This document shows positions 38,576 through 55,114 of a stretch of DNA of 64,000 nt, one piece after another. Source of the stretch: Nitrospirota bacterium (GTDB taxonomy: Bacteria > Nitrospirota > UBA9217); assembly GCA_963751455.1 (NCBI GenBank), contig CAVVUN010000015.1, forward strand, positions 544,001 to 608,000, read 5' to 3'. The position numbers were made by a program, and so were the translations under genes. The notes below the pieces were generated by a model. That model was not told the origin of the DNA. It saw only the letters and a list, made by a program, of their open reading frames with translations, and ran no database searches. Each line of letters opens with the position of its first letter. Positions within the stretch are counted from its first letter, which is position 1.

Positions 38576-39817
38576 TCAGGCTGTTTTTTTCTCGAGTTCC
38601 TCTTCTCTCAGTTCGGTCCCTTTTGCAATTACAACAATTCCTGACGGTGTTACCTCATAACGTTTTTTATCTTCCTCCAGATTATATCCGATTTCGGTCC
38701 CTGGGGGAATCGTCACGTCCTTGTCAATAATGGCTTTTCGAATCCTGCAGTGTCTGCCGATCTCGACGTTTTCCATGAGGATGGAATCATGGACTTCGCT
38801 GTAGCTGTTAACCCGCACGTTGGGTGAAAGCACGGAATTATACACCTGGCCGCCGCTTATAATGCAGCCGTGGGCCACTATCGAATCAAGCGCCATGCCG
38901 AGCCGTCCCCCCTTCTCCTGCTGCGCGAAAACAAATTTCGCGGGCGGGTTCTGTCCCTGGTATGTCCGTATCGGCCATGCCTTGTCGTAGAGGTTCAGCA
39001 GCGGGTCGACGCTGACCAGGTCCATATTCGCCTCCCAGTAAGCGTCGATGGTGCCTACGTCGCGCCAATACTTCGCGGCCTTCTTGTTCTCATCCTCGAA
39101 GTTGTAGGCATAAACCCGGTCGGTCTTCATCATATGTGGAATAATATTTTTTCCGAAGTCGTGGGCCGTGTCCCTGAGCGCGTCGAATTCGAGATGCTCA
39201 ATGGCTTTTTTTGTATTGAAAAGATAGACGCCCATCGAGGCGAAGGCCAGGTCGGACCGGCCGGGAATCGGTTTCGGACTTTTCGGTTTTTCCTCGAAGC
39301 CGATGACCCGATAGTCCTTGTCCACCTCTATTACCCCGAACGAGGATGCTGTTGCCCTCGGTATTTCAAGGGCTGCAACAGTGGCATCGGCGTTCTTTTC
39401 CTGATGAAAGCGGAACATCTCCGAATAGTCCATCTTGTAAATATGGTCCCCGGCAAGGACCATAAGGTGGTCCGGCGCGTCTTTTTCGATCATATAGATG
39501 TTCTGGTAAATCGCATCCGCGGTCCCCTGGTACCATTTGTCTCCGACGCGCTGCTGGGGAGGTACGGAAATTATGTATTCATTCAATTCTCCGGAAAAAA
39601 AATTCCAGGCGAGCCGTAAATGCTTGTCGAGCGAAAGGGATTTATACTGGGGAAGGACCGCAATCTTCCGGATACCGGAATTGATGCAATTTGAAAGAGT
39701 GAAATCAATAATTCTGTAGATTCCTCCAAACGGGACAGCCGGTTTTGCGCGGTGGATGGTCAGCGGATGCAGCCGTTCGCCCTTGCCGCCTGCCAGAATC
39801 ATTGCCAGAATGCTCAT
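38576..39817 (-). CDS. glgC: Glucose-1-phosphate adenylyltransferase
   Basis: LAGGKGERL, RAKPAVPFGG, WYQGTADA, GDHIYKMDY, FEEKP, ASMGVY, YWRDVGT. Confidence 0.97.
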   Translation of the reverse strand: MSILAMILAGGKGERLHPLTIHRAKPAVPFGGIYRIIDFTLSNCINSGIRKIAVLPQYKSLSLDKHLRLAWNFFSGELNEYIISVPPQQRVGDKWYQGTADAIYQNIYMIEKDAPDHLMVLAGDHIYKMDYSEMFRFHQEKNADATVAALEIPRATASSFGVIEVDKDYRVIGFEEKPKSPKPIPGRSDLAFASMGVYLFNTKKAIEHLEFDALRDTAHDFGKNIIPHMMKTDRVYAYNFEDENKKAAKYWRDVGTIDAYWEANMDLVSVDPLLNLYDKAWPIRTYQGQNPPAKFVFAQQEKGGRLGMALDSIVAHGCIISGGQVYNSVLSPNVRVNSYSEVHDSILMENVEIGRHCRIRKAIIDKDVTIPPGTEIGYNLEEDKKRYEVTPSGIVVIAKGTELREEELEKKTA

Positions 39818-40361
39818 TCGTTCTCTTCTCCTTCATTGCTGATCAAAACAGACAGCCAAATTAATAATAGCAGGAGGTTATGAGCCTGTCAAACTCGTAA
39901 TGTCTGACCGGAGAAAAGAAATTGCGACAAAGAATTATCTAAAAGAGTCATGATAAGCTTCAATACAGAACAATGATTACGGGTAAGAAAAAGATGCAGT
40001 ATGGCTCGCTGGATAAGCCGTATTGAAAATGGATCTCTGCATAGTACTCCTTATCAAGAAGAAAATCCTCAAGCTTACGGTTGCCAAAGCATGCAACGAT
40101 GTTTCATTTTTTTCTTTCATTCATCAGGAAAATAGTGTAAATTGTTACCGATTGTAGCATGTATCCTTCCAAAACAATGAAATCCTTTTTTGAACGTAGT
40201 ATTTTGCAGTGATCGATCATAACAGACGTGGTCTTTCAACAAGTTCATTACCTGTTACACCCATGCATTATTAACAGGAGTAAGATCAGGGTACGTGATG
40301 TGCATGAATCCATATCCTAAAGGGGCGAGCAGCAGTCAGGGCTGCCGCAGAAGGAACGATT

Positions 40362-41213
40362 ATGCCAAAAATTCTGGAAAAAAGATTGCTTCGGAAACCG
40401 GATGTTTTTTATTTCAAGGTCGCTGCACCGCTTATTTCAAAGAAGGCAAAGCCCGGACAGTTTGTCATTCTTCGGCTCCACTCAAAAGGTGAGCGGATCC
40501 CCATTTCGCTTGCGGATATAAATCCGGCGGAGGGGACCATCAGCCTGATCGTCATGGCCGTGGGCAAGACCACCACCGAGATGTCGCTGATGAAAACGGG
40601 CGATGAGATACTCGATCTCTGCGGACCACTGGGCAATCCGACGCACATCGATCATGCCGGTAAAGTGATTGTTGTCGGCGGCGGTTTCGGGGTTGCCCCG
40701 CTCTATCCTATTGCGCGAGCTTTCAAGGCCAAAGGCAATGAGGTCGTCTGTGTCATGGGCGCCCGATCCAAAGATCTCCTGATCTACGAGAAAGAAATGG
40801 AAGAGGTCTGCAGCAAGGTTCTTGTTTCAACCGACGATGGAAGCAAGGGAATGAAGGGTGTCGTGACCGAAGCGCTCCGTCAGGAGCTTGAGAAGGGCGG
40901 TACCGGCCTTGTTGTCACGGTCGGTCCGGCGATCATGATGAAGTTTGTATCCGAGACGACTCGCCCCTTCGGCGTGAAAACTATGGTGAGCCTCAACCCC
41001 ATCATGGTCGACGGCACAGGGATGTGCGGCGGATGTCGCGTTACTGTTGGCGGCCAGACCCTCTTCGCCTGTACTGACGGTCCTGAATTCGACGGGCACC
41101 AGGTCAACTGGGACATCCTCATGACCCGGCAAAAATCCTATACCCCGGAACAGCGGGAATCCTTTGAATCATGGAAGCAGCGGCACGCGGGCGTGCTCTG
41201 CGAACGGGGGTAA
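40362..41213 (+). CDS. nfnA: NfnA (FAD / [2Fe-2S] subunit of NADH-dependent reduced ferredoxin:NADP+ oxidoreductase)
   Basis: GERIPIS, GPLGNP, GGGFG, MVDGTGMCGGC...CTDGPEF; adjacent to nfnB. Confidence 0.88.
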   Translation: MPKILEKRLLRKPDVFYFKVAAPLISKKAKPGQFVILRLHSKGERIPISLADINPAEGTISLIVMAVGKTTTEMSLMKTGDEILDLCGPLGNPTHIDHAGKVIVVGGGFGVAPLYPIARAFKAKGNEVVCVMGARSKDLLIYEKEMEEVCSKVLVSTDDGSKGMKGVVTEALRQELEKGGTGLVVTVGPAIMMKFVSETTRPFGVKTMVSLNPIMVDGTGMCGGCRVTVGGQTLFACTDGPEFDGHQVNWDILMTRQKSYTPEQRESFESWKQRHAGVLCERG

Positions 41214-41216
41214 GCC

Positions 41217-42632
41217 ATGGCTGAAGAGAAGAAAACACCGAAAAAAATTATACCGAAAAAAACACCGATTCCCGAGCAGCCGCCCCAGGAGAGGCGCTCC
41301 AATTTTAAAGAAGTGTCCCTCGGCTATACACGGGACATGGCAATGCAGGAAGCAGCACGCTGCCTGAATTGCAAGAAGCCGGGGTGTGTAGACGGCTGTC
41401 CGGTCAATGTTCCTATTCCCCGGTTCATCAAGGCAATCAGTGAAGGGGATTTTAAGAAAGCTATTGCTATTATCAAAGAGGCGAATCTCCTGCCTGCGGT
41501 GTGCGGCAGGGTTTGTCCCCAGGAGAGCCAGTGCGAGAAGAACTGCGTGGTCGGGAAGAAATTCGAGCCGGTAGGCATCGGCCGACTCGAACGATTTGCC
41601 GCTGATCAATCCTTCAATAACGGCGGGTCCGAGACGCCCCAGGTCGGCCAGAAGACCGGGCGGAAGGTTGCCGTCATCGGCAGCGGCCCCTCGGGCCTGA
41701 CATGCGCCTACGAACTGGCGAGGCAAGGGCACAGTGTAATCATCTATGAGGCGCTCCACGAGCCGGGAGGCGTTCTTGTGTATGGCATTCCGGAATTCCG
41801 GTTGCCGAAAAAAATTGTCTACAGTGAAATCGAAGTGCTCAAAAAAATGGGCGTCGAGATCATGACGAACGCGGTAGTGGGCAAGCTGTTTACTGTGGAT
41901 GAAATCATGCAGGAGAATGATGCCTGCTTTATCGGCAGCGGAGCAGGCCTGCCGAAGTTCATGAACATTGACGGCGAGAACCTGAACGGAGTATATTCCG
42001 CGAACGAGTTTTTGACCAGAATCAATCTTATGCGGGCCTACCAGTTTCCGGAGTTCGATACCCCGATTAAGCGTGGGGACCGGGTGGCGGTCTTCGGGGG
42101 TGGAAATGTTGCCATGGATGCGGCCAGGACCGCTCTCCGCATCGGCGCGTCCGAGGTCGTTCTGGTTTACCGCAGGTCTCTCACGGAACTGCCGGCTCGC
42201 AAGGAAGAGGTTCATCATGCCCAGGAGGAAGGGATCCGGTTCGAGCTCTGCACGAACCCGGTTCGGATCCTTGGAGATGATCAGGGGCAGGTTCGGGCAG
42301 TAGAGTGCGTGAGGATGGACCTGTGCGAGCTGGATGAGTCGGGCAGGCGTTCGCCGAAGCCGATCAAGGGATCGGAATTCGAGATCCCGGTGAACGTCGC
42401 TATTGTCGCCCTCGGTACGGGCGCGAATCCCATCATTCCCCAGAGCGCCAAAAATCTTCAGGTCAACAAGAGGCTCTATATCATTGCAGACGAACAAACA
42501 GGCCGTACGAGCATGGAGGGCGTATACGCCGGCGGCGATATTGTCACCGGTTCGGCCACCGTCATCTCGGCAATGGGCGCCGGGAGGAAAGCCGCTAAGG
42601 CCATGCACGAGTATCTGATGCAGAAAAAATGA
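41217..42632 (+). CDS. nfnB: NfnB (GltD-like bifurcating FAD / 2x[4Fe-4S] subunit)
   Basis: RCLNCKKPGCVDGCP, VCGRVCPQESQCE, GSGPSG, GGGNVAMD, AGGDIVTG. Confidence 0.9.
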   Translation: MAEEKKTPKKIIPKKTPIPEQPPQERRSNFKEVSLGYTRDMAMQEAARCLNCKKPGCVDGCPVNVPIPRFIKAISEGDFKKAIAIIKEANLLPAVCGRVCPQESQCEKNCVVGKKFEPVGIGRLERFAADQSFNNGGSETPQVGQKTGRKVAVIGSGPSGLTCAYELARQGHSVIIYEALHEPGGVLVYGIPEFRLPKKIVYSEIEVLKKMGVEIMTNAVVGKLFTVDEIMQENDACFIGSGAGLPKFMNIDGENLNGVYSANEFLTRINLMRAYQFPEFDTPIKRGDRVAVFGGGNVAMDAARTALRIGASEVVLVYRRSLTELPARKEEVHHAQEEGIRFELCTNPVRILGDDQGQVRAVECVRMDLCELDESGRRSPKPIKGSEFEIPVNVAIVALGTGANPIIPQSAKNLQVNKRLYIIADEQTGRTSMEGVYAGGDIVTGSATVISAMGAGRKAAKAMHEYLMQKK

Positions 42633-42697
42633 CCGGCGCGCGCGTTGTTCCGCCCGTCGATAATTTAGGAGCACGTTGTGACCTTTTTGTGGCATGC

Positions 42698-42735
42698 CGG
42701 GGTCTCTTCATCCCCCTTGGAGACCCCGCTTTTTT
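42698..42735 (+). terminator. Intrinsic terminator after nfnAB
   Basis: cggggtctc...gagaccccg plus a T-run. Confidence 0.7.
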
Positions 42736-42780
42736 CGGACATGCTCATGAGCTCCTTAATTTAGACGAGGATTAACCGGG

Positions 42781-43448
42781 TTGAAACGGCACAATACTGA
42801 ATATTCGTCAATAAAACAGGAAAGCCGAATCGAACTTGTCCCTTTGAAAACCGTTTGGGGAGAAGCGAAAGCATGGGAAACGCTCTCGGGGCTCAGTACT
42901 AAAGATGTCTGTGCCGGAGCAAAAGCAACGCATGACCCCTCAACCGGAACCTATGCAATAAAATGCTTTGGTATAGATTTCATTGTGTCGACCGGAGAGA
43001 GAACGATTTCCAGCGAAAATCCTCATGCCGGACTGTTTCTCGGAAGGTACAAAGATTTTTTCCGGCTTTCATTACTCTGGTATATGACGAGTGCGAAGGA
43101 TATTCCCTCCACGAAACGGCTGATAAGGCCGATTGATGTTAAAGGCGGTCAGCGTTTTTTTACAGGCACCCATGTTCTCCCGCTCGACCGCATTCAGGAA
43201 AAGTACCGCAAAGATAAATTGAGCTGCGCGGCATCAAATTTGGCGCGGAGATCGCCACGTACGGAGATGCGGCAGTCCGGCTTTATCCACTGCCCCGGGT
43301 TCCGGTTACGATGATCCTGTGGCTCGAGGATGAGGAATTCCCTGCGAGAGCATCGCTCTTTTTCGATTCAACTGTTGATTACCAGATCTCCTTGTCCGAC
43401 ATTGTCTGGTCCGTTGCCATGATTTCGACACTCGTTATGCTGGAGTAA
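42781..43448 (+). pseudogene. DUF3786-like protein, frameshifted near 43218
   Basis: The N-terminal frame runs to GGQRFFTGTHVLP...KDK. The C-terminal half, YGDAAVRLYPLPRVPVTMILWLEDEEFPARASLFFD...MLE*, is in another frame. Confidence 0.75.
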
Positions 43449-43853
43449 GCCCTTAAACCACCGTTAACTCGGCAGAATCACTTTTATATCGACTTTGATG
43501 TTCCCCACACTTTAACCCCTTCCCTTCGAACAGGCTGCGAAACGAAGAGAACGCTATTTCTCTCTGTAGCACGTTATTAGCCTGGTCAGTTTAGCAGAAG
43601 TTTTTCCAAAGCTATCGCAAAGCCGGACTAAAAAACAGAACCTCCGTAGTTGCTCTTATACAGAAAATCGCTTTCTGCCCTCGCGAAATGAAACAAATAG
43701 CCTATCCGGATCGTCAATTCAGCACAATATAACTTACTGATATTATTAAATAAAAATTGTTACAATAAAACATGATATACTCTTTTTAACGTGAATAAAA
43801 GTTACTCTCAGTAAAAATAATCTAAATATAAAAATTATTAATGCAAATTTGTA

Positions 43854-43914
43854 TTGATTTTTATGTGTCATATTGATAGTATCGATCACTTTCTTTATTG
43901 TGATTCAAGTCACA
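43854..43914 (+). promoter_or_regulatory. sigma70 promoter with a downstream Rex/CRP-like palindrome
   Basis: TTGATT-N17-TAGTAT with extended TG (43854-43882); TGTGA-ttcaag-TCACA at 43899-43914. Confidence 0.6.
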
Positions 43915-44111
43915 GAAAAATGTGTAGTTTGGTAACATTTCGTTCTTTTTAAAAGTTGCATGGCTGTTTGGCTGCTTTACCCCTGATAAGGGGCTTCTTT
44001 GCTAATCTGCAGTTGGATTTTTCCCGTGGTCAGTACAACTCCATACAGCTCATGTGTTTCAATCTCCCGGTCTGTAAAATACGACGGGGAGAAGGGGAGG
44101 TATAACAAAAA

Positions 44112-44600
44112 GTGCTTCATCAAGAAGACCTGAAAAACATAGATTCTGTTCTGAACAATGCCCAGGGCCAGCGCGGAATGCTGATTGCCGTACTTCAACG
44201 GATTCAGGAAAAGATCGGCTACCTCCCGGAAGACGCCATGGGCATGATTGCGGACCGGATGTCTTTATCTCTATCCCAGGTGTACGGTGTGGCCTCGTTT
44301 TACAAACATTTTCATTTTAAACCCCGGGGAAAAAAAATCGTCAAGGTATGCATGGGCACTGCCTGCCATGTACGGGGCGCCAAAGCCGTGCTTACCGAGA
44401 TGGAGGAAAAGCTCGGGATTAAAGAGGGAGAAACAGCACCGGACCTTTCGGTAACTCTCGAAACAGTCGGATGCGTCGGCTGCTGCGCTCTGGCTCCTGT
44501 TGCAACGATAAATGATCAGGAACTCTTCGGCGAGCTGACGCCGAAGATGGTGGACGGCATCATCCATGCGGTGAGGAGCGAACATGGAACTCACGTTTAA
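44112..44600 (+). CDS. NuoE/HydC-like [2Fe-2S] subunit
   Basis: VYGVASFY, VCMGTACHVRG, VGCVGCC; GTG start after GGAGG. Confidence 0.9.
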   Translation: MLHQEDLKNIDSVLNNAQGQRGMLIAVLQRIQEKIGYLPEDAMGMIADRMSLSLSQVYGVASFYKHFHFKPRGKKIVKVCMGTACHVRGAKAVLTEMEEKLGIKEGETAPDLSVTLETVGCVGCCALAPVATINDQELFGELTPKMVDGIIHAVRSEHGTHV

Positions 44601-46473
44601 ACGTCTGGAAAGCATACAAGACCTGGATGTCCTGAGGCAAAAGCTCCGCAAGGAACGCCAAGAGAGCGAGGCGCTGCGCGTCCGTATCTGTTGCGGTACG
44701 GCCTGTCAGGCTACAGGTTCGAACAAACTGGTCAAGAAATTCGAGGAAGAGGCGGAGAAAAAGCAGGTTAACCTCGAGATTGTCAAAACGGGGTGCCAGG
44801 GCTTCTGTCAGCGCGGGCCTGTCGTAATCCAGCAGCCGCAGGAAATGTTCTATCAGAAAGTGAACGTAAATGATGTTCCTGCTCTGTTCTCGGATTCCGT
44901 GATGCGCGGTATCCCGTACCGCAAACAGCTCTATCGGGAGAGTGCCCTTTCAGAACCGAATACAACCATGAAGGACATCCCCTTTTACAAAAAACAGAAA
45001 CGCCTTGCCCTTCAGCGCAACGGTTTTGTCGATCCGTGCAATATTTATGATGCTATTCGCGAGGACGGCTATGCAGGCCTGGCGAAGGTGCTGACCGAAA
45101 TGAAACCGGACGATGTGATCGATCTCGTTAAAAAATCCGGGCTCAGGGGTCGGGGGGGCGCGGGCTTTCCGGCGGGCCTCAAATGGGAACATACTAAAAA
45201 ATCAGGCGCCAAAATCAAGGCCGTTATATGCAACGGGGACGAAGGCGACCCTGGAGCGTTCATGGACCGGGCGGTTATGGAAGGCGATCCCCACTCCGTC
45301 ATCGAAGGAATGATTGTCAATGCCTATGCAATAGGCGCACGGTATGGATTCATCTACGTCCGGCACGAATATCCGCTTGCCGTAAAAAATCTGGGTGTAG
45401 CTATAAGCCAGGCCGAGGCACTCGGCCTCCTGGGAAAGAAAATTCTCGGTTCAGATCTTGATTTCACGATAGAAATCAAGGAGGGTGCCGGAGCTTTCGT
45501 TTGTGGTGAATCGACATCGCTCGTGGCCTCCATTGAGGGAGAGCGAGGCATGCCCCGCCCCCGCCCGCCGCGGCTATCCGAGGCTGCCGGCGGTCTGTGG
45601 GGTATGCCCACAAACCTCAATAACGTCGAGACCTTTGCGAACGTGCCGGTCATCCTTACCAAGGGGCTGGATTTTTATACGAAGATCGGGACGCCCAAAT
45701 CGCCGGGCACAAAGGTGTTCGCCCTCACAGGAAAGATCAAGAATACGGGCCTGATCGAAGTCCCGATGGGCATCACACTCCGGGAGATCATCTTTGATAT
45801 CGGCGGCGGCATGCTGAACCCGAACAAGAAGCTGAAGGCGGTCCAGACCGGCGGACCTTCCGGCGGATGCATTCCCGCACAGTTTCTCGATATGCCTGTT
45901 GATTTCGATTCCCTTTCCAACGTCGGTTCCATGATGGGATCAGGCGGAATGGTCGTTATGGACGAAGACGACTGCATGGTCGACGTGGCCAAGTTCTTTC
46001 TATCGTTTACGAAGAACGAGTCCTGCGGCAAGTGCGCGCCATGCAGGATCGGCACCTATCAAATGTACGAGCTGCTTGAAAAGATAACTTCCGGCCGGGG
46101 CAAGGAGGATGACATTGCACGGCTTGAAGAGATCGGGAAGATGGTGGCCGAAGGTTCTCTGTGCGGTCTCGGCAGCAGCGCGCCGAACCCGGTGCTTTCC
46201 ACAATCAAATACTTCCGGGAAGAGTACGAAGAGCACGTACGCGAGTACTGCAGGGCAAAACGCTGCCAAGGCATGGGGGTGTTCCGCATCCTTCCGGAGG
46301 AATGCATTCTCTGCGGCATGTGCAAGACCGCCTGCGCGTTCGATGCCGTGGTGGAGCTTCGAGACAAATTTTTCATTGACCAGGACTATTGTACAAAATG
46401 CAAAGCCTGCTATTCAGTCTGTCCCACAAATGCAATCGTGATAGAGAGGAGGAAAAGCTATGCATCAGCCTGA
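44584..46473 (+). CDS. NuoF/HydB-like NADH/FMN subunit with an N-terminal [2Fe-2S] and C-terminal 2x[4Fe-4S] domain
   Basis: CCGTAC...GCQGFC, GLRGRGGAGF, NGDEGDPGAFMDR, GAGAFVCGE, GGPSG, SCGKCAPC...LCGLG, two CxxCxxCxxxC motifs. Confidence 0.92.
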   Translation: MELTFKRLESIQDLDVLRQKLRKERQESEALRVRICCGTACQATGSNKLVKKFEEEAEKKQVNLEIVKTGCQGFCQRGPVVIQQPQEMFYQKVNVNDVPALFSDSVMRGIPYRKQLYRESALSEPNTTMKDIPFYKKQKRLALQRNGFVDPCNIYDAIREDGYAGLAKVLTEMKPDDVIDLVKKSGLRGRGGAGFPAGLKWEHTKKSGAKIKAVICNGDEGDPGAFMDRAVMEGDPHSVIEGMIVNAYAIGARYGFIYVRHEYPLAVKNLGVAISQAEALGLLGKKILGSDLDFTIEIKEGAGAFVCGESTSLVASIEGERGMPRPRPPRLSEAAGGLWGMPTNLNNVETFANVPVILTKGLDFYTKIGTPKSPGTKVFALTGKIKNTGLIEVPMGITLREIIFDIGGGMLNPNKKLKAVQTGGPSGGCIPAQFLDMPVDFDSLSNVGSMMGSGGMVVMDEDDCMVDVAKFFLSFTKNESCGKCAPCRIGTYQMYELLEKITSGRGKEDDIARLEEIGKMVAEGSLCGLGSSAPNPVLSTIKYFREEYEEHVREYCRAKRCQGMGVFRILPEECILCGMCKTACAFDAVVELRDKFFIDQDYCTKCKACYSVCPTNAIVIERRKSYASA

Positions 46474-47083
46474 GAATAAATGCCCGGTAAACGAGGCCCG
46501 GACCCGTCTCCAGAATTTTTATGATGATGATTCAAAAAACGGTATGTGTTCCAAGTGCCACCCGTGCAAGCTCGGCGTCTCTAATGCGATACGGATCATC
46601 GAGATGATCCAGGAGGGCAGGGGAGAGAAGCGGCATATCGCGCTCCTCAGAAACATTGCCCGGAACATGAAGGATGGAAGCATGTGCAAGAAGGGCAAGG
46701 ACCATGCGGACATTCTTTCCGAGTTTCTCACTTCTTCCAGTGAAGATTTTTGCCGGCATGTGCGCGGCATTTGCGACGACCAGGAGTGCCCCTCCCTTGT
46801 TCAGTATATGATCAGTGCCGACCGTTGCACGATGTGCGACGTCTGCCGCGTCGCTTGCCCCTCGACTGCCATCGAGGGACAGAAGAGAGAGCCGTACAAG
46901 ACCGGATTCATGCCGTATCGCGTCAGGCAGAAGCGGTGCACGCATTGCGGTCTGTGCCTGGCGGTCTGTCCTGAAGGCGCGGTGTACGTGCCGGCTGATG
47001 TAACCGCACCAGACAAGGTGAGGACAGCGGCGGTAGAAAAATCGAAACACGAAGATAAGGAATGCGTTGAAGTAGGAACATAA
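46460..47083 (+). CDS. Fe-S protein resembling the C-terminal module of HydB/NuoF (NADH_4Fe-4S + 2x[4Fe-4S])
   Basis: KCPV, MCSKCHPC...SMCKKG, HVRGICDDQEC, CTMCDVCRVAC, CTHCGLCLAVC. Confidence 0.85.
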   Translation: MHQPENKCPVNEARTRLQNFYDDDSKNGMCSKCHPCKLGVSNAIRIIEMIQEGRGEKRHIALLRNIARNMKDGSMCKKGKDHADILSEFLTSSSEDFCRHVRGICDDQECPSLVQYMISADRCTMCDVCRVACPSTAIEGQKREPYKTGFMPYRVRQKRCTHCGLCLAVCPEGAVYVPADVTAPDKVRTAAVEKSKHEDKECVEVGT

Positions 47084-47100
47084 GAGGATCCGGAGGAACT

Positions 47101-49263
47101 ATGAGCAAGATGGTCAATATCGAACTGGACGGAAAAGCAGTGTCCGTGCCGGATGGCGCAACACTCGTGGATGCCGCCGCCACAGTCGGCGTGCACATTC
47201 CCAACCTGTGTCATATCAAGGAACTGCGCGGTGTGGGCGCATGCCGCATGTGCATGGTGGAGATCGAGGGCATGAAGACGCCGGTCACCGGATGCACAAC
47301 CAGGGTGAAGGAAGGCATGAAGGTCGCAACGAAGACCCCGAAGGTGGAGGAAATCAGAAAGTTTGTGACGGACCTTGTTCTTTCCTTTCATCCGCTCGAC
47401 TGCATGACCTGCCCCAAGGCAGGCGCCTGCGACCTGCAGCGCTATGCCGCGGATCTTGGTATCCGGGAATCGTCCTTCGGACGCAAGACCTTTAATTACG
47501 AATTAAACGATAAGAGTCCCTTCATCACCATCGACAATAATTTTTGCGTTCTGTGCGGCAGGTGCGTCAGGGTATGCAAAGAACAGGGGACGAATGTTCT
47601 TGACTTTATGGGGCGCGGCATCAGCACTAAGGTCTCGACCGCTTTGGATAAGCCCTTGCATGAGTCGGGGTGCTCGTTTTGCGGCAGTTGCGTCGATGCT
47701 TGCCCGGTAAACAGCATCATGGAACACGACCGGTGGCAGCACGGCAGGGAATGGGACCTCCAGAAAAAAAATACGGTATGCACGGCCTGCGGCTCGGGCT
47801 GCAGCGTAACGACAAGCAGCAAGGACGGAAGAATCGTAAAAGTGAACGCACAAGACGACAATGGGTACATATGCGGCATCGGCCGTTTTGGTTTCGATTC
47901 AATGAATTCAAACAACCGCATTGCCTCTCCAATGAAAAAGCAGGGAGGCAAACTGGTGCCTACGACCTGGGACGACGCAGCCGCAATGGCAGCGGATGCC
48001 CTCAAGAAGGCCGGATCCGGTGCAGGTTTCATCGCAGCAGGTTCTCTCCTGAACGAAGAGGCTTATGCAGTTCAATTACTGGCCAGGGGTGTGGTCGGCA
48101 GTGCTCATATTGATACGCCTTCGTCATCATATGCATCAGGAATGATCTCCGCCTTGTGCTCGGTCTACGGCGGTAAAGGGCTGGGCATCGGGTCACAAGC
48201 GGACGTCTCAACCGCTGACTGCGTGGTTATCATCGGTGCGGACCCTTCACAGAAGAAGCAGTCCCTTCAGGAAGTAGACGTGGCGATCCGGAGGAGGGCG
48301 CAAGCGGGTGCCAAGATCATCGTGGTAAGCACCGTGAAGACAGATCTGGCGGGTCATCAGAACGCAATCCACCTCCAGCTTAAAGCGGGATCCGATCCGG
48401 TGCTGCTCGCAGGATTCATGTCTGCGGTTCTGGCGGAAGGTGTGACAGCGACAGCAAAGGGCGGTGACGCTCTTAAAAAGTCTTTGGTAAGCGTCGATGA
48501 TGCGGCTTCGGCTTCAGGGGTTTCTTCTGAACTGATCAACGCAGCTGCAAAGACGTACGCCGCCGCAAAGCACCCGGTTGTCGTTATCGGCGCGGGGATA
48601 TCCGGAAGCGAAGAATCTTCGACGCAGGCATTAAATCTGGCGCTTCTCAAAAATGCCGGTGTTCTGCCGCTTATGCTTGAGGCAAATTCCCTCGGCGTTC
48701 TGCAGATGGGATGCCGGTTCGACAAAGAACCCGGTTTTATAAAAGCCAAGAAGGCCGGCAAGAACTATAGCGATATTATGACGTCCGGACTGAAAGCCGT
48801 TTTCATAGCTGGTAATGTACCTGAAGATGCTGTGAAAGCGGATTTTGTTGTTGTGGCAGCAAGTCACATGACTGGGCTGGCGGAAAAGGCTGATGTAGTA
48901 CTTCCCTTGTCCTCCCTGTACGAACGGGACGGCAGCATAGTAAACACCTACGGAAAAACGAAGACGCTTATCGGAGCGCAGGCGGTTCAGGGATCTGCAA
49001 AGAACGGAGCAGAAATTGCGGCGGAACTTTCCGCTCTGATCAGCAAGGCCAAAGGTTTCAAGCTGAAGGAAATTGCATCGGGAGCCAAAAAAGTAAAGGC
49101 GGGAAAAATTGAAGCAGGGTGCTTCAAGCCTGTATACGCAAAGACTGTCAAGAATTCAGCCGTGTCGACCCGTGCTTTTTTATTCGCGATAAACCGCGGA
49201 CTTTTGGCCGGTTCAGCGGTAGGTCGCGTCATAGTCGTAGCAGAGCCAGCGCTTCAGCGCTGA
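47101..49263 (+). CDS. NuoG/FdhA-like Fe-S subunit with an apparently cofactor-less molybdopterin-oxidoreductase fold
   Basis: [2Fe-2S] LCH...ACRMC...GC; HPLDCMTC...C; 2x[4Fe-4S]; CTACGSGC...C. HIDTPSSSY occupies the position of the FDH Cys/Sec-His motif. Confidence 0.85.
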   Translation: MSKMVNIELDGKAVSVPDGATLVDAAATVGVHIPNLCHIKELRGVGACRMCMVEIEGMKTPVTGCTTRVKEGMKVATKTPKVEEIRKFVTDLVLSFHPLDCMTCPKAGACDLQRYAADLGIRESSFGRKTFNYELNDKSPFITIDNNFCVLCGRCVRVCKEQGTNVLDFMGRGISTKVSTALDKPLHESGCSFCGSCVDACPVNSIMEHDRWQHGREWDLQKKNTVCTACGSGCSVTTSSKDGRIVKVNAQDDNGYICGIGRFGFDSMNSNNRIASPMKKQGGKLVPTTWDDAAAMAADALKKAGSGAGFIAAGSLLNEEAYAVQLLARGVVGSAHIDTPSSSYASGMISALCSVYGGKGLGIGSQADVSTADCVVIIGADPSQKKQSLQEVDVAIRRRAQAGAKIIVVSTVKTDLAGHQNAIHLQLKAGSDPVLLAGFMSAVLAEGVTATAKGGDALKKSLVSVDDAASASGVSSELINAAAKTYAAAKHPVVVIGAGISGSEESSTQALNLALLKNAGVLPLMLEANSLGVLQMGCRFDKEPGFIKAKKAGKNYSDIMTSGLKAVFIAGNVPEDAVKADFVVVAASHMTGLAEKADVVLPLSSLYERDGSIVNTYGKTKTLIGAQAVQGSAKNGAEIAAELSALISKAKGFKLKEIASGAKKVKAGKIEAGCFKPVYAKTVKNSAVSTRAFLFAINRGLLAGSAVGRVIVVAEPALQR

Positions 49264-49683
49264 GCTTGTTAGTATATCGAACGATGGCACGCATAGGGGG
49301 GAAAGACAAAGGTATAAAGACATAGCGACAACAGAGAACGATTCGTTATAAAAAAAGTTGTGTGCTTTTCTCGGTAGGAGCGCTAGGTGTACGGTTAAAG
49401 CCCTTGTAAGAGTCGCAGCGATGTCGGTAGGGGATCTATTGAAAGAGTCGCTGCCTCACTTTCCGATCCGAGATGGCGCAATTAGTCCGCGGTTACCCCT
49501 CATAAGCTGCATATCCTCTTGCTGACTTCCCGCTCGAGCTGTTTTCATAAAGTCTACAAGTTTCGAAACTAACGCAAAGTAGCAGAAATTTTCTGTAGTT
49601 TTTTTATTTTGTTTTTTGTATAATGCCCCGGTTCAGAGTCCGACCGCACTTTTGTCTACCTTCCTGAAAGGAGCTTATAAGTT

Positions 49684-51672
49684 ATGAAAGAAGAACTGAA
49701 AACGGCTGACCCCGCTGCGCAAGTATTGCTCAAGTCAGCCGGGGAGAAAAAACTCCCTACCGCATTTGATCGCGCAGAAAAGCTTAAACCTTGTCCGATA
49801 GGCCACCAGGGTGCATGCTGCAAAATGTGCTATATGGGACCATGCAGGCTTGTGGGCAAAGATGCTGAGGAGGCGGCTTCAGGCGTCTGCGGGGCAACGT
49901 TGCCGGTTGTGGCGGCGCGGAACTTCGCACGCATGGTAGCTGCAGGGACCGCGGCCCATTCGGACCATGCCAGGGACTTGGCCAACACTCTGCTTGCCGT
50001 GGCACAGGGAGAAGCCAAGGACTTTCAAATCAAGGACGTCCGTAAGCTCAACCGGGTTGCCGGATATCTCGGTATTAATGTCGAAGGCAAATCCGTCAAC
50101 GAAATCGCCGAAAAGGTCGCGCTCAAATTTCTCGATCAATTCGGTCAACAGCGGGGCGAGCTTGTCTACCTGTCGCGTGCACCCAAGAAGCGGCAGGAAA
50201 TATGGAAGAAGCTTGGAATAGCGCCAAGAGCCATTGACCGTGAGTGCGTAGAGATGCTGCACCGCACCACGATGGGTGTAGACCAGGAGCCCCACAATAT
50301 CATGCTCGGCGCGATGCGGGCATCACTCGCTGACGGCTGGGGCGGTTCCATGATGGGAACGGACATTTCGGATATTCTTTTCGGAACGCCTGTTCCCGTC
50401 AAAACCAACGCCGGGCTCAACGTTTTTAAAGAAGACAATGTGAACGTCGTTGTTCATGGTCACGAGCCGTCATTTGCGGAAATGCTCGTTGTGGCCCAGG
50501 AAGAGCCCGATCTTGTGGCCTACGCAAAATCCAAGGGAGCCAAGGGAATCAATCTCGTGGGTATGTGCTGCACTGCGAACGAAATCCTCGTGCGGCACGG
50601 CATCCCTACGGCAGGCGGCTTCCTGCAGCAGGAACTGGGGATAGTAACCGGCTTGATTGAAGCCATGGTGGTGGATGTGCAGTGCATCATGCCTGCCATT
50701 GCGCAGCTTGCCAAGAATTATCATACCAAGATCATAACGACTACTCCGAAGGGCAAAATGATCGATGCCGTTCATATCCAGTACGAGGAGCATCACGGTC
50801 TGGACATCGCGAAGCAGGTCATTCGCCTTGCGATCGACAACTACCCGAACCGCAAGAAGGAGAAGGTGTCGCCTGCCGGGGTCAACACCGCGGATGTTAT
50901 TGCCGGCTTCTCGGACGAGTACATTGAATACATGCAGGGCGGCCGGTATCGTGGGTCCTATCGTCCTCTCAATGACGCGATTATCTCCGGACGTATCCGG
51001 GGAGTCGTCGGTCTTGCGGGTTGCAACAACCCGAGAATCACCCAGGACAGTCTGCATAAGTTCCTGGCAACCGAGTTGATCAAGAACGACGTGCTCGTGG
51101 TCCAGACTGGCTGTTCAGCGATGGCTTCAGCTAAGGCCGGCTATATGACAGCAGAATATGCTTTGGAAAACGCTGGTCCGGGACTTCGACAGGTCTGTGA
51201 AGCTATCGGCGTTCCGCCGATGCTGCATCTTGGCTCCTGCGTAGACAATTCGCGCATACTGACGATTGCGTCTAAGATCGCTGAAGAGGGCGGGCTGGGC
51301 GACGATATCGGGGGACTGCCGGCAGTGGGTATCGCTCCTGAATGGATGAGCGAGAAAGCCATCGCGATCGGCACCTACTTCGTTGCCTCCGGTGTTCCAA
51401 TCATTTTCGGCGTAGGTTCTCCGGTCGCATCCAGCAAGGTGCTGAAGGACCTTATGGAAAACAAGTGGTGGGACATGGTTGGTGCAGGATTCTATTTCGA
51501 GGAAAATCCCGAAAAAATTCTGGAACTTACACTCAAACTTATCGATACCGCGCGGGAAAAATTGAAACTCAGAAAGTACGAGCCGGGAGCATTCGGCACA
51601 GAGCGTGTACTGATGGACATGGCCGCGCGCCGCGCGAGTACCTTTGCTACACCTCATGGCGAAAATGCATAA
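49684..51672 (+). CDS. cooS: Anaerobic Ni-dependent carbon monoxide dehydrogenase catalytic subunit
   Basis: D/B clusters CPIGHQGACCKMCYMGPC...VCGA; AAHSDH; C-cluster ligands in VHGHEP, GMCC, VQCI, AGCNN, TGCS, GSCVDN; MSEKA. Confidence 0.96.
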   Translation: MKEELKTADPAAQVLLKSAGEKKLPTAFDRAEKLKPCPIGHQGACCKMCYMGPCRLVGKDAEEAASGVCGATLPVVAARNFARMVAAGTAAHSDHARDLANTLLAVAQGEAKDFQIKDVRKLNRVAGYLGINVEGKSVNEIAEKVALKFLDQFGQQRGELVYLSRAPKKRQEIWKKLGIAPRAIDRECVEMLHRTTMGVDQEPHNIMLGAMRASLADGWGGSMMGTDISDILFGTPVPVKTNAGLNVFKEDNVNVVVHGHEPSFAEMLVVAQEEPDLVAYAKSKGAKGINLVGMCCTANEILVRHGIPTAGGFLQQELGIVTGLIEAMVVDVQCIMPAIAQLAKNYHTKIITTTPKGKMIDAVHIQYEEHHGLDIAKQVIRLAIDNYPNRKKEKVSPAGVNTADVIAGFSDEYIEYMQGGRYRGSYRPLNDAIISGRIRGVVGLAGCNNPRITQDSLHKFLATELIKNDVLVVQTGCSAMASAKAGYMTAEYALENAGPGLRQVCEAIGVPPMLHLGSCVDNSRILTIASKIAEEGGLGDDIGGLPAVGIAPEWMSEKAIAIGTYFVASGVPIIFGVGSPVASSKVLKDLMENKWWDMVGAGFYFEENPEKILELTLKLIDTAREKLKLRKYEPGAFGTERVLMDMAARRASTFATPHGENA

Positions 51673-51695
51673 GATTTACTGATGGTATGTACCGA

Positions 51696-51726
51696 AGGAG
51701 AGGTCTTGCGGCCTCTCCTTTTTTTG
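51696..51726 (+). terminator. Intrinsic terminator after cooS
   Basis: aaggagagg-tcttgcgg-cctctcctt plus a T-run. Confidence 0.85.
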
Positions 51727-52093
51727 CGATATCATCTGGAATGATGTGGTCGTTCTTTAGAATTTTGACGTCGGCAGGATATCAAAAAAAATGTAAAGGG
51801 CGAAAGGCTTAATAGTATCAGCCATCTGATCGGGGCGGCTTTAGCCCTCGCGGGGCTCGCAATTCTCGTAGTATATGCAAGTTTGAAGGGCGATGCCTGG
51901 AAGATAGTGAGCTTCGCCGTTTACGGCGGGACGTTATTTGCCCTGTATTTATTATCCACGTGTATCACAGCCTCCAGGGAAAAGCTAAATATATATTTCA
52001 AAAACTCGATCACACCGCCCATTTGCTTATCCCCGGCACGTATACCCCGTTTACGCTTGTAACGCTTCGCAGTTCTTCGGGTTGGACCCTCTT

Positions 52094-53380
52094 TGTGCAA
52101 CATGCACATGGGTTACATTTTAACCTGTGGACATGGGTTACACTTTTTTTAACTTAGGTTCCACTTTTCCGAGCTTGACGTCGAGTATGCCGATAGGATG
52201 GAAACCGAAGCGAATTTCGTATTTTCCATCGGCGGTCTCGATGAGGCCGATTCTCGCTCCGGCCAGGAGCTCGGAGATGAAGTAGTAAGTTCTGTTAAAC
52301 CGGATCTCGCCGTGAAGGCGGATCTTGCGGACCTTGATGCCATGATCGTACTCAGGTTCGCGGAGTTTTTCCGGGAACCTCCTGGGTGATGGTTCGTAAA
52401 CGCTCGCGGGTGTCTTTTTATTGAGCGCCTCATGCGGGCGGTCGTAATTGTACTCGTGCCGGAACTCATCAAACCGGATTTGCTGCCGGTCCATATTGGC
52501 CTTAGGCGGCTTGGCGGTGTCCTGTTTCAGGGTCCGGTGCATCCGCTCGTGGCGCCCGTTCTGCTGGGGCTTGCCGGATTCTATCCGTTCCGGCCTAATA
52601 CCGAGTTTGATGAGCCATACCGACAATCGGCTGAGGCCCGTTACCCCGCGTCCGGCAAACGGCGTCCCGTTGTCGGTACGAATCGCTTCCGGCAGGCCGA
52701 ACTCCCGGAACGCCCACTCGAACCAGGGCTGGGTGTCCGCATGGCAAGGGGAATAAAGGCCCTTGCACGTAAGCAGGTAACGGCTCATGTTGTCGGTGAT
52801 GGTCAAGGGATAACACCATCGGCCGTCGCCTGTCTTGAACTGGCCCTTGTAGTCTGCGCTCCAGACTTTGTTCGGTGCATCGCAGGCCAGGAACGGCTCA
52901 CTGTATTTCGGCGTTTTCTTGCGCAGCCGCCGGTCCTTGACAAGGCCGTGTCGTTTAAGCCATTTCTCGGCGGTACAGACAGAGGGCCATTTAATCTGGG
53001 GCTCGTCCCGGTTTAAGAGGTCTAACAGCTTCTCGGGACCCCAGGTCATATGCAGCAGCTTTGCTTCAACCAGACGGTTGATGATTTCCTCATCGGTCTG
53101 GTTCGGGTGAACGATTGGAGCTCGGCAGAGCTCTTTCAGGCCGTCTTGGCCGAGACTGTCGTAACGCTCGGTCCACTTATAAATTGTCTTGCGGCTTACT
53201 CCGTAGATCACCGACAGATCGGTGATACTGTAGCCGTTAAGCCAGTCGGCTATTAGCTTTAAACGCTCTTCCATGGGCTCCGTCTTTCTCCAGGGCATAG
53301 GATGATCCTCCTAGCCCTGCAGTTTAACGTGTTACCCATGTCCATAGGTTAGTTTGTTACCTATGTTAGCAGGTTGTACC
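52094..53380 (-). mobile_element. IS481-family insertion sequence
   Basis: Ends TGTGCAAC / GTTGTACC; subterminal repeats catgggttaca x2 on the left and tgttacc(c/t)atg x2 on the right; CTT on both flanks. Confidence 0.85.
52138..53298 (-). CDS. IS481-family DDE transposase
   Basis: N-terminal HTH (VSRKTIYKW), WSADYKG, IRTDNGTPF, QQNGRHERMHRTLK, YNYDRPHEAL. Confidence 0.95.
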   Translation of the reverse strand: MPWRKTEPMEERLKLIADWLNGYSITDLSVIYGVSRKTIYKWTERYDSLGQDGLKELCRAPIVHPNQTDEEIINRLVEAKLLHMTWGPEKLLDLLNRDEPQIKWPSVCTAEKWLKRHGLVKDRRLRKKTPKYSEPFLACDAPNKVWSADYKGQFKTGDGRWCYPLTITDNMSRYLLTCKGLYSPCHADTQPWFEWAFREFGLPEAIRTDNGTPFAGRGVTGLSRLSVWLIKLGIRPERIESGKPQQNGRHERMHRTLKQDTAKPPKANMDRQQIRFDEFRHEYNYDRPHEALNKKTPASVYEPSPRRFPEKLREPEYDHGIKVRKIRLHGEIRFNRTYYFISELLAGARIGLIETADGKYEIRFGFHPIGILDVKLGKVEPKLKKV

Positions 53381-53834
53381 CTTCGGAATCGTATGGGGGC
53401 CGGCAATCATAGGTATACTGCAGGAAATTCTTTTGAGGAAGCGCAACCAGCTGGTTTCGGTTTCTCTCTACGTCGTCATGGGCTGGCTCGCCTTGGCCGC
53501 TATTCGTCCGATCGCAAAGGCCCTTCCCGTTCCGGGACTGATCATGCTGATCGGCGGCGGACTTTTCTATACGGTCGGAGTCATATTTTATGCACTCGAT
53601 AATAAACTGAAGTTCTGCCACGTCAGTTTTCCATTTCTTTGTTCTCGGCGGCAGTGTCTGCCATTACTTCTCGATATTACTGTACCTAACACACAGGCCA
53701 TCCCTGAATTTCCATTTAAAAACCAATTAAAATAGTTTACATTCAAATAATTTCTTGACATTTAGTACTTTTTCAGTATGCTACTAACTATACTTACTAT
53801 AACTATTATCACTATTTAATCAAGTGAGGATACC

Positions 53835-54035
53835 ATGGTCATGCGCAAAAATCCGAAAAGGTATAAAACCAAAGACATATGCGATAGGTTTGACATCTCT
53901 CGGGCGACACTTTTCCGATGGGAAAGCGAAGGGTTGCTCATGGGAGTAGGGCGCGATTGGCGTGGTTGGCGTATTTATGACGAGAGCAATCTCAAGGCGA
54001 TTGAAAACATTATCAAGAACAAGAACATCGTATAG
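53835..54035 (+). CDS. Stand-alone MerR-type winged HTH protein
   Basis: TKDICDRFDISRATLFRWESEGLL...RDWRGWRIY, 66 aa; GAGG RBS. Confidence 0.85.
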   Translation: MVMRKNPKRYKTKDICDRFDISRATLFRWESEGLLMGVGRDWRGWRIYDESNLKAIENIIKNKNIV

Positions 54036-54061
54036 TGGATTGACTCTTTATTGGAGCGAGA

Positions 54062-55114
54062 ATGTTTTTTTCAAAAAATAGTGATCCAATAGCGCTGGAT
54101 ATAGGCTCCACCTTTATCAAACTGGTGCAATTGAAAGGCGCCAAGGGGCATTATCAGTTGGTCAAGTTCGGGATGGTGCCGCTGCCTCCGGAAGTAATCG
54201 TTGAAGGGGCGGTCATGGATGCAGGGCGGGTCGTGGATGCCATTAAGGAACTATTGACGGACCAGCAGATCAAAACAAAAGAGGCGGTGATCTCGGTTTC
54301 CGGCAGCTCGGTTATTATCAAGCGCATATCGGTGGCCGATATGTCCGAGGAAGAGCTTGGAGAGTCGATCAAGTGGGAAGCGGAGCAATATATACCGTTT
54401 TCCATCGATGATGTGAATGTAGATTTTCAGAAGCTGGGTCCGGGCGCACAAGAGGGGCAAGCCGACGTTCTGTTGGTCGCTGTCAAGAAAGATAAAATAA
54501 ACGACTATATAAATCTCGTGAAGGAAGCCGGGCTTGAACCGACAGTCCTCGATGTGGACGCCTTCGCGCTTGCCAATATGTATGAATTGAACTATGACTT
54601 AGAGGCAGGAATTACGGCGCTCCTGAACATTGGCGCATCGGTGATGAATATCAACATCCTGAAGGACGGCATGTCCATTTTTACGCGCGATATTACGGTA
54701 GGCGGGAACCGCTATACCGAGGCGCTCCAGCGCGAATTCGGCCTGAGCTATGAGGACGCTGAAAAGGTGAAGCGCGGAGAGGTTGAGGGGCTCGGGGACA
54801 AGGAACAGATCGCGGGTATCATGGCTTCCGTCACTGAAGATATCGTCGCTGAAACGCAACGATCCTTCGATTTTTTCCGGTCCACGACCGGAAGTGAGAA
54901 GGTTACACGCGTACTTGTATCCGGCGGCTGCGCGAGAATCGGAAATTTTACGGCGGTACTGTCAGAGCGGATCGAAATTCCGGTCGAAATCACGAATCCA
55001 TTCAAAAATATCAAGGTTGATCCGAAGCGCTTTAACCCGGTTTCACTGCAGGAAGCAGGGCCGCAATCTGCGGTTGCCGTTGGTCTTGCTATCAGGAGGC
55101 CCGGAGACCGATGA
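54062..55114 (+). CDS. pilM: Type IV pilus assembly protein PilM
   Basis: Actin-like fold motifs LDIGS, WEAEQYIPF, LNIGAS, VSGG. Confidence 0.95.
   Translation: MFFSKNSDPIALDIGSTFIKLVQLKGAKGHYQLVKFGMVPLPPEVIVEGAVMDAGRVVDAIKELLTDQQIKTKEAVISVSGSSVIIKRISVADMSEEELGESIKWEAEQYIPFSIDDVNVDFQKLGPGAQEGQADVLLVAVKKDKINDYINLVKEAGLEPTVLDVDAFALANMYELNYDLEAGITALLNIGASVMNINILKDGMSIFTRDITVGGNRYTEALQREFGLSYEDAEKVKRGEVEGLGDKEQIAGIMASVTEDIVAETQRSFDFFRSTTGSEKVTRVLVSGGCARIGNFTAVLSERIEIPVEITNPFKNIKVDPKRFNPVSLQEAGPQSAVAVGLAIRRPGDR

Follow-up and report, generated by a model that had tools for sequence, protein, structure and literature searches.

A 64,000-nucleotide window of contig CAVVUN010000015.1 from a Nitrospirota bacterium (the genes of Table 1 all lie on the + strand) encodes a block of four genes, bfuC, bfuB, a gene that we call D and bfuA, followed by cooS, the gene for a nickel carbon monoxide dehydrogenase (CODH). 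The best reading of the sequence data is that this block encodes an optional electron partner of CODH/acetyl-CoA synthase (CODH/ACS), a member of the Bfu family of electron bifurcators, one that would work with NADP(H) and ferredoxin. A model that saw only the DNA letters and their open reading frames (ORFs) had earlier described hydC-like, hydB-like, extra Fe-S and NuoG-like genes ahead of an intact cooS, and had proposed a CO:NAD+/ferredoxin oxidoreductase that feeds the transhydrogenase NfnAB (also NfnSL). All the ORFs named in this sequence-only reading are present at the positions it gave. The system is real, conserved and uncharacterised, and the chemistry of the earlier proposal needs correcting.

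Results

The CO dehydrogenase and a split CODH/ACS

CooS scored 600 on TIGR01702 (cut-off 478), and the ligands of its D-, B- and C-clusters and its catalytic His and Lys residues were invariant in 39 of 39 aligned rows. Its closest match in the PDB was 6T7J, followed by AcsA of C. autoethanogenum (6YTT, 6e-183). We take it to be a clade E enzyme, and its D-cluster motif is of type II by the scheme of PMC6344411. A tblastn search found a single cooS in the genome. Just one further prismane gene is present; it is HCP-like by inspection and gave no match to the CooS query at 1e-8. The sequence-only reading had noted correctly that acsB and cooC are not neighbours of cooS. Neither adjoins the bfuC-bfuB-D-bfuA-cooS genes in the window, and there is no cooF in the locus, although no genome-wide search for cooF was made. 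As to its suggestion to look for acsB elsewhere, an acs cluster without cooS lies about 580 kb away, at the start of the same contig (C15:2.5-17.7 kb), and holds acsB, acsC, acsD, acsE, cooC, hylCB-fdhA and fhs (cooC and acsE named by sequence inspection). The AcsB encoded there carries the N-terminal domain that marks the alpha/beta type of bacteria.

The same split was seen in relatives. None of 19 acs regions held a cooS (0 of 16 in family f1 and 0 of 3 in families f2 and f7); in other families cooS directly follows acsB (G026, G027, G035, G036 and eight further loci). A quick tree was built from 43 rows, among them the CooS of the window and a selection of 12 module-linked rows of family f1. 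The CooS of the window fell into a 33-row clade with all CooS encoded next to acsB (SH-aLRT 100), which provides the CODH clade that the sequence-only reading had asked for. Most second copies lay outside this clade, and two divergent CooS encoded next to fdh lay inside it. As the only cooS in the genome, in a genome whose acs cluster lacks one, and as an orthologue of CooS encoded next to acsB, the gene therefore belongs to a split Wood-Ljungdahl operon and not to a monofunctional CODH. We are highly confident that CooS is AcsA, the CODH subunit of the CODH/ACS complex. The stand-alone CO oxidase of the sequence-only reading is not supported by these findings, nor by a conserved -10 element of cooS described below.

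Several further arrangements of these genes were observed. The divergent same-clade CooS of L070 (G020) and L229 (G070) are encoded directly ahead of an fdhA-like gene. G024 and G080 (97-98% complete) carry acsB without a CooS over the cut-off, and hold only a 509-aa distant prismane protein. In family f2 (L066, L067), cooS is followed by nifS/nifU-like genes and a fur-type regulator, labelled by inspection. Two similar but non-identical metF-panB-thyX-cooC-acsE-acsD-acsC-acsB copies, both frameshifted, lie at contig ends (C3:1-12000 and C15:1-10000) and are probably an overlap of a strain-mixed assembly (contamination 5.37%). In hylC-hylB-fdhA (C15:10068-15170), which lies directly behind acsB, the catalytic codon is an in-frame TGA (CARY*H); this codon is likely to specify selenocysteine, and the enzyme, judged from its sequence, is likely to be an NAD-type bifurcating formate dehydrogenase (FDH). 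Most relatives have the TGA in the fdhA behind acsB, and G003 has Cys.

Bifurcation marks of BfuB

The Bfu family is defined by a BfuB with FMN, SLBB, NADH-4Fe-4S and ferredoxin domains, a NuoE-like BfuC and a BfuA that has [2Fe-2S] and [4Fe-4S] domains (PMC9304861). The proteins of the block carry this set: the four domains in BfuB, PF01257 in BfuC and PF13510 in BfuA. BfuB matched PF01512, PF10589 and PF00037, with PF10531 at 26.8, just below the cut-off of 27; the correspondence between InterPro and Pfam domains is the one we assume. It contains GDPGAFMDR, GAGAF and GGPSG and the Cys sets for an N-terminal [2Fe-2S] cluster, B1, a C..H..C..C site and 2x[4Fe-4S]. Alignment of Cys and His residues to 7T2R and 8A6T, the bifurcating B subunits that were also its top PDB matches, placed all ligands of B1-B5, confirming the motifs and cluster sites listed for this subunit in the sequence-only reading.

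Bifurcating and non-bifurcating beta subunits are told apart by A/E232, M234, F367 and GGPSG in T. maritima numbering (PMC7311640). BfuB has the full set of marks of Losey et al., namely the clusters, AFM at 225-227, F305 and GGPSG at 423-427, and in the BfuB rows linked to cooS or acs genes, AFM, F and GGPSG were retained wherever the stretch was readable. From these motifs, it is very likely that BfuBC bifurcates electrons. The sequence-only reading had called for a Bfu phylogeny; in a FastTree tree of a chosen subset of 47 rows, the linked BfuBs formed a clade of their own.

An NADP-type nucleotide pocket

The nucleotide pocket of BfuB reads CGEST...RPRPPR, as opposed to CGEET...PPF/PPY in the aligned NAD-type chains (7T2R, 7Q4V, 9N5U and 6TG9). 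Ser310 and Arg330 of BfuB align with Ser320 and Arg340 of HydB from T. kivui, whose HydABC is strictly NADP-specific (20.8 versus <0.01 U/mg; PMC8578170) and whose Arg340 is listed among the residues that stabilise bound nucleotides (PMC10021017, legend of Fig. 4). Ser310 also occupies the position of Glu286 in NfnB of T. sibiricus, which is said to ensure selectivity for NADH over NADPH (PMC12018979, section 7). In FdsB of R. capsulatus the two residues correspond to Glu259 and Leu279 (numbering checked), and there the removal of the charge, or L279R, confers activity with NADP+ (PMC10671435).

Among 51 linked pockets in 48 loci, 45 read EST..PPR, two EAT..PPR and three EET..PPF, and one was frameshifted. 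The three NAD-type pockets belong to tandem second copies of BfuB in L113, L117 and L201, which form the sister group to the rest; each of these loci has a C-B-B-D-A block with one CGEET..PPF and one CGEST..PPR BfuB. Both pocket positions thus switch together between paralogues. The genome's own Fdh-linked and Nuo-linked BfuBs keep the NAD-type EET..PPF. On this evidence the nucleotide of the module is probably NADP(H), not the NAD+ assigned to it in the sequence-only reading, which a Glu/Phe pocket would have suited.

BfuB varies in other respects. An extension of about 150 residues, resembling a pair of CBS domains by inspection, is present in the NADP-type BfuBs of L056, L199, L200 and L205 and in the NAD-type BfuBs of L113 and L117, hinting at regulation by adenylates. 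Paralogues that group with the genome's Nuo-linked BfuB vary in their pockets, with tandem CGEET and CGEGT copies in G088 (L235/L239) and a Nuo-linked-type copy with CGEAT..PPH in G092 (L234).

BfuA without a catalytic site and D, a flavin-less half-BfuB

BfuA matched HydA of the NiFe-Bfu enzyme over its full length (7T2R_A, 4e-69), and the 20 ligands of its clusters A1-A5 were invariant in 35 of 35 rows. At the site of the FDH motif D-x-C-A-R-x-C/U-H it reads HIDTPSS; the molybdenum domain is dead. No Cys-x2-Cys pair occurs in BfuA beyond residue 260, a degenerate Mo domain makes up its C-terminal part, and H-cluster patterns were not found in the protein. The absence of both H-cluster motifs and the FDH Cys/Sec-His motif, reported for this NuoG-like gene in the sequence-only reading, therefore holds. 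We ruled out a role of the module as an FeFe hydrogenase, since PF02906 had no match anywhere in the genome. A role of BfuA as an FDH was also ruled out: it has no Cys/Sec, and a true TGA-containing FdhA with its own HylCB is encoded in the acs cluster.

D is a flavin-less half-BfuB and not a CooF. All 16 of its ligands, those of a B1-type [4Fe-4S] cluster, the C-H-C-C site and both ferredoxin clusters, were invariant in 43 of 43 rows. Its structure model (pLDDT 84.8) gave 14 Foldseek matches at E<=0.001, of which 11 were HydB, NfnB, StnB or WorB chains, matched in their C-terminal halves. That D is a fragment of a broken bfuB was ruled out, because BfuB lacks no part and all 43 rows have D as a conserved ORF of its own. 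D may bridge to CooS, bind a soluble ferredoxin or occupy a second B slot on BfuA. A complex prediction of two CooS(1-400) with D(1-182), for which no controls were folded, scored 0.00 and speaks neither for nor against a contact. D-like proteins of 170-200 residues occur outside the phylum, for example in Ammonifex (the 173-aa proteins P0145 and P0283 of A. thiophilus and A. degensii); D-like proteins of this genus have the accessions WP_041458747.1 and WP_134642932.1. Of at least 80 D-like metagenome loci outside Nitrospirota, the four that were examined were all ordinary BfuB C-termini, and other matches included generic ferredoxins; a plasmid search gave four weak matches.

Linkage of the module to CODH/ACS genes

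Of 120 further genomes from the phylum, 34 had D; they belong to seven families, and all 34 also carry acsB and cooS. In all 34 relative loci with enough flanking sequence, cooS follows bfuA. The 14 loci from six other families divide into 11 in which the module adjoins cooS and 3 (G114, G058 and G070) in which it sits among acs genes and not beside cooS. The gene order is C-B-D-A-cooS in family f1 and cooS-C-B-D-A in the other families, so the pairing of module and cooS outlived a rearrangement. Since kin are not independent, the 48 loci stand for a single event or a few. In the relative loci the module is accompanied by no other catalytic partner. The core of the sequence-only reading, a Bfu-type module that lacks its own catalytic site and is tied to a CO dehydrogenase, is borne out by this evolutionary linkage.

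Loci with the same block came nearly all from Nitrospirota records, including UBA9217 and GWC2_57_13, and two lay in one record labelled Betaproteobacteria. The genome also carries dsrA (split in the assembly), NiFe hydrogenases and rnfC. This gene content is consistent with a basal, Wood-Ljungdahl-bearing member of the phylum; basal Nitrospirota are described as using this pathway (PMC10203281).

A proposed electron path

Of all steps in the Wood-Ljungdahl pathway, the reduction of CO2 to CO has the lowest potential, and two electrons from reduced ferredoxin are usually counted for it. In CO2 fixation, NADPH and reduced ferredoxin would be confurcated at BfuBC to give four mid-potential electrons, which would pass through the clusters of BfuA and through D to the D-cluster of CooS and there reduce two CO2 to two CO, with ACS consuming the CO. 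In the oxidation of CO or acetyl-CoA, the reverse run would yield NADPH and reduced ferredoxin; any NfnSL present would then do no more than rebalance NADPH to NADH and ferredoxin. On balance, and by a narrow judgement, we favour a route in which electrons pass between the D-cluster of CooS and the chain of clusters in BfuA, and in which D is the adaptor that replaces CooF. The whole chain, from confurcation of NADPH and ferredoxin at BfuBC through BfuA and D to the CooS D-cluster and on to ACS as CO, is a tentative proposal that we hold to be somewhat less than an even prospect. A stable CODH/ACS-Bfu supercomplex, in which ACS-bound CooS is joined through D to an NADP-specific BfuABC and NADPH gives half of the electrons for CO2-to-CO reduction, seems rather unlikely on present sequence evidence. 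If it existed, lineages with tandem NAD- and NADP-type BfuB could switch nucleotide, and the CBS-like BfuB tails could put the CO2-to-CO step under the control of energy charge.

The potentials offer a rationale for NADP, although no proof. NADPH lies at -370 mV and CO2/CO at about -520 mV. For NADH and ferredoxin, values of -280 mV and -500 mV are given in the abstract of PMC9304861. With these potentials, the computed equilibrium ratio of pCO2 to pCO is about 740 for NADPH plus ferredoxin and about 25,000 for NADH plus ferredoxin, such that the former pair supports about 30-fold more CO.

If this proposal is true, the blending of NADPH and ferredoxin for CODH halves the ferredoxin demand of the CO2-to-CO step, and the ATP bookkeeping of basal Nitrospirota changes. 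As no CODH-linked Bfu enzyme has been purified so far, the Nitrospirota family would be a conserved and compact test case, and its tandem NAD/NADP BfuB paralogues amount to a natural experiment in how HydB-type proteins choose their nucleotide.

Evidence against the proposal and alternative explanations

Several observations weigh against an NADP(H)/ferredoxin partner of CODH/ACS. CO2/CO lies below ferredoxin in potential, so the scheme needs very low CO. In G092 and G088, the module was lost in place, and cooS and acsB were kept; D was not found in families f2, f3, f4 and f7, whose searched members have cooS and acsB. Because CODH/ACS persists in relatives without the module, the latter is an accessory route. 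In G070, the module stays with acsB, and cooS was found on another contig. With regard to the pocket, loss of charge at residue 259 or the L279R change in R. capsulatus FdsB gives weak NADP+ activity, and NAD use is kept (PMC10671435). In WorB (9MQX), whose structure has NADH bound, Ser likewise replaces the Glu, with His and not Arg as the second residue.

Finally, cooS is probably also transcribed on its own, from a predicted promoter. TATAAT occurs in 21 of 29 bfuA-cooS gaps, at a near-fixed distance from the ribosome site, compared with 1 of 28 D-bfuA control gaps and about 1.9 expected, and the promoter-like element is retained in G092 despite loss of the module. The conserved -10 element means that co-transcription with the module is not required. 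The outcome that the sequence-only reading had named as fatal to itself, a cooS transcribed separately with ACS as its partner, is largely what we found: the cooS is the sole one, the acs cluster has none, and separate transcription is indicated by the gene's own -10 element. A riboswitch or repeat in the 420-nt bfuA-cooS gap was considered and dropped, as Rfam gave 0 matches at E<=1 on 39000-54200 and the gap had no second copy in the genome.

The likeliest of the alternatives, although we think it unlikely, is a free redox hub. The module would then connect NADP(H), a low-potential ferredoxin and a third soluble carrier that docks at the ferredoxin arm of D, and serve CODH/ACS through soluble ferredoxin, being merely co-located with cooS; in a variant of this explanation, genomes with two BfuBs would have a Stn-like NADH/NADPH/ferredoxin transhydrogenase. 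It fits the promoter-like element of cooS, the dispensability of the module, its position among acs genes away from cooS in G114, G058 and G070, and the tandem NAD- and NADP-type copies in L113, L117 and L201. It also fits D as a copy of the ferredoxin-binding half of BfuB; ferredoxin docks at the Fd-like domain of BfuB (PMC12018979). However, in family f1 it was cooS that left the acs operon with the module, and not the module that stayed with acsB (34 of 34 loci), and CODH/ACS is present in every one of the 34 D-bearing genomes, with no other catalytic partner travelling along.

The same wiring to CODH/ACS with NAD(H), or with both nucleotides, as the high-potential partner is improbable. 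In the hypothesis of Schut et al., NAD(H) and ferredoxin are the substrates of every Bfu enzyme (PMC9304861), and the NADH-bound WorB structure and the NAD-type paralogues inside the linked clade agree with this. Yet the combination of Ser and Arg is that of the NADP-specific T. kivui HydB and sets BfuB apart from the aligned NAD-type chains, and the two positions switch jointly between paralogues. We regard as decidedly improbable a non-bifurcating NADPH diaphorase with inherited motifs, which would link NADP(H) with CODH or ferredoxin but not couple them energetically. The function of the residues that mark bifurcation is described as unknown and prediction from motifs is correlative (PMC7311640), and D might short-circuit a gated path; against this stand the complete set of Losey et al. 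marks in BfuB and the retention of AFM, F and GGPSG across the linked rows.

A monofunctional CO:NAD+/ferredoxin oxidoreductase that feeds NfnSL to make NADPH from CO, as first proposed, is very improbable: nfnSL does lie beside the module here and in some relatives, and acsB and cooC are not adjacent, but the sole cooS must also serve ACS, the pocket is NADP-type, and nfnSL has its own terminator, is missing from most family loci and also flanks cooS without the module. The pair itself (FAD and [2Fe-2S] in NfnS, a GltD-like NfnL) is ordinary by sequence. Of 27 family loci, 4 have the pair ahead of the module and the other 23 lack it. In G036 and G095 nfnSL comes after bfuA, and in G027 and G092 it stands after or before a cooS that has no module. 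This scattered adjacency suggests an old neighbourhood and no fixed relay, contrary to the CO-to-NADPH relay through NfnAB envisaged in the sequence-only reading. If BfuB uses NADP(H), any serial coupling to Nfn during CO oxidation would run from NADPH to NADH and ferredoxin, the reverse of that scheme.

Comparison with known systems

Codh-Bfu ('CodhABCSF') enzymes have been predicted and never purified (Schut et al. 2022, PMC9304861; Feng et al. 2025, PMC12318220), in agreement with the sequence-only reading, which had called CODH-linked Bfu enzymes predicted, not characterised. The block resembles them in that a BfuABC core is encoded with a Ni-CODH, and CO/CO2 is the proposed third substrate. 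The published Codh-Bfu comprises four sequences, from Firmicutes only, with BfuB in clade 49 and a Type 2 BfuA without A3 and A5 (PMC9304861). Its CODH genes lie between bfuB and bfuA, CooF is the adaptor, NAD is assumed and CO oxidation or detoxification is proposed (PMC9304861; PMC12318220); its BfuA ends in a WorA-type Zn finger and helix (PMC12318220). By contrast, BfuA of the Nitrospirota block has all five clusters A1-A5 and a dead Mo domain but no Zn finger, only D stands between bfuB and bfuA, cooS lies outside, and the CODH is an ACS-type orthologue. What differs from the predicted architecture is the locus without CooF, the extra half-BfuB subunit D and the NADP-type pocket. The block works like the predicted Codh-Bfu but lacks its defining features, and is not a member of it as described.

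By sequence, the architecture is nearer to the Type 3 NiFe-Bfu HydABCSL of Acetomicrobium mobile (7T2R/7T30), the best PDB match of BfuB (1e-220), in which an empty A subunit, like BfuA, is fed by a separate catalytic enzyme. That enzyme has a NiFe hydrogenase as its partner, an NAD-type EET..PPF pocket and no D. T. kivui HydABC (8A6T/8BEW) shares an NADP-specific bifurcating BC core and the CGEST..RPPR pocket, but its A subunit carries an H-cluster, and it has neither a link to CODH nor D. The clade E CODH/ACS of C. autoethanogenum (6YTT) has the same type II D-cluster motif and, as in this genome, an N-terminal domain on AcsB. Its CooS receives electrons from soluble ferredoxin, whereas cooS of the window is separated from acsB and linked to the Bfu module. 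No difference was found between the nfnSL pair (40362-42632) and NfnSL of 4YLF and 5JCA (presumably T. maritima and P. furiosus NfnI), and its adjacency to the module is sporadic.

NuoE/F/G-like COGs are listed among Wood-Ljungdahl neighbours of CODH (PMC6344411). In the available text of PMC13056359, on the genomic context of CODH, the strings Nuo, bifurcat, Nitrospir and NADH do not occur, and the accessible parts of PMC7325909 and bioRxiv 10.64898/2026.06.25.734504 held nothing that bears on the block. In the literature covered, which left out most subscription journals and in which figure images and the Bfu sequence table could still bear on the matter, we found no description of the Nitrospirota block, of D or of an NADP-type CODH-linked Bfu.

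Features of the locus and neighbouring elements

The features are listed in Table 1. As bfuC overlaps bfuB, bfuB overlaps D and 17 nt separate D from bfuA, the four genes form one translationally coupled block. The terminator after cooS, already noted in the sequence-only reading, was found by folding and is absent from the list of a simple terminator scan. The sequence-only reading had passed over the terminator that follows nfnL, the frameshifted DUF3786 gene, the TATAAT at 49619 ahead of cooS and the unusual pocket for the nucleotide in BfuB.

Table 1 Features of the bfuC-bfuB-D-bfuA-cooS locus and its upstream neighbours (window positions)
Feature	Position	Strand	Remarks
nfnS (NfnA), NfnSL transhydrogenase small subunit	40362..41213	+	PF00175 and PF10418; NF004862 above cut-off
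nfnL (NfnB), NfnSL large subunit	41217..42632	+	Top PDB matches 4YLF_B (7e-174) and 5JCA_L (named NfnI alpha)
Terminator-like hairpin and T-run closing nfnSL	42698..42735	+	-18.6 kcal/mol
DUF3786 gene, frameshifted in assembly	42781..43449	+	PF12654; C-terminal part in other frame
bfuC, HydC/NuoE-like, one [2Fe-2S]	44112..44600	+	PF01257, 7e-49
bfuB, FMN, B1-B5 ligands, AFM/F305/GGPSG, NADP-type pocket (Ser310 and Arg330)	44584..46473	+	
D, flavin-less copy of BfuB C-terminal half	46460..47083	+	B1-type [4Fe-4S], C-H-C-C site, 2x[4Fe-4S]
bfuA, NuoG-like, clusters A1-A5, degenerate Mo-bis-PGD domain without Cys/Sec ligand	47101..49263	+	
Promoter-like element of cooS, T-rich tract then TATAAT (49619-49624)	49590..49626	+	Conserved in relatives
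cooS, clade-E-type Ni-CODH, likely AcsA of split CODH/ACS	49684..51672	+	
Intrinsic terminator 3' of cooS	51694..51725	+	12-bp hairpin and T-run, -19.8 kcal/mol

Upstream of bfuC, many relatives share a conserved promoter-like element, TTGATT-17-TAATAT, and downstream of it the palindrome GTTAC-N5-GTAAC. A one-mismatch copy of the palindrome lies at window position 43801 and a perfect copy before acsD (C15:5159), possibly sites for a shared regulator. A CRP-like TGTGA-N6-TCACA at 43899 was rejected as a site, as it was not seen by eye in the upstream regions of relatives.

The DUF3786 gene also follows nfnL in L106 and G092 (L227). Its frameshift, near 43215, may be an assembly error, given the other split genes of this genome (acs cluster and dsrA). 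Beyond cooS, a transposase gene with an rve integrase core (52138-53298, - strand; flanks at about 51780-53720), which we take to be IS481-like, splits the gene of a membrane protein that resembles the hemolysin-III/PAQR family. The transposon end recurs at seven other sites of the genome.

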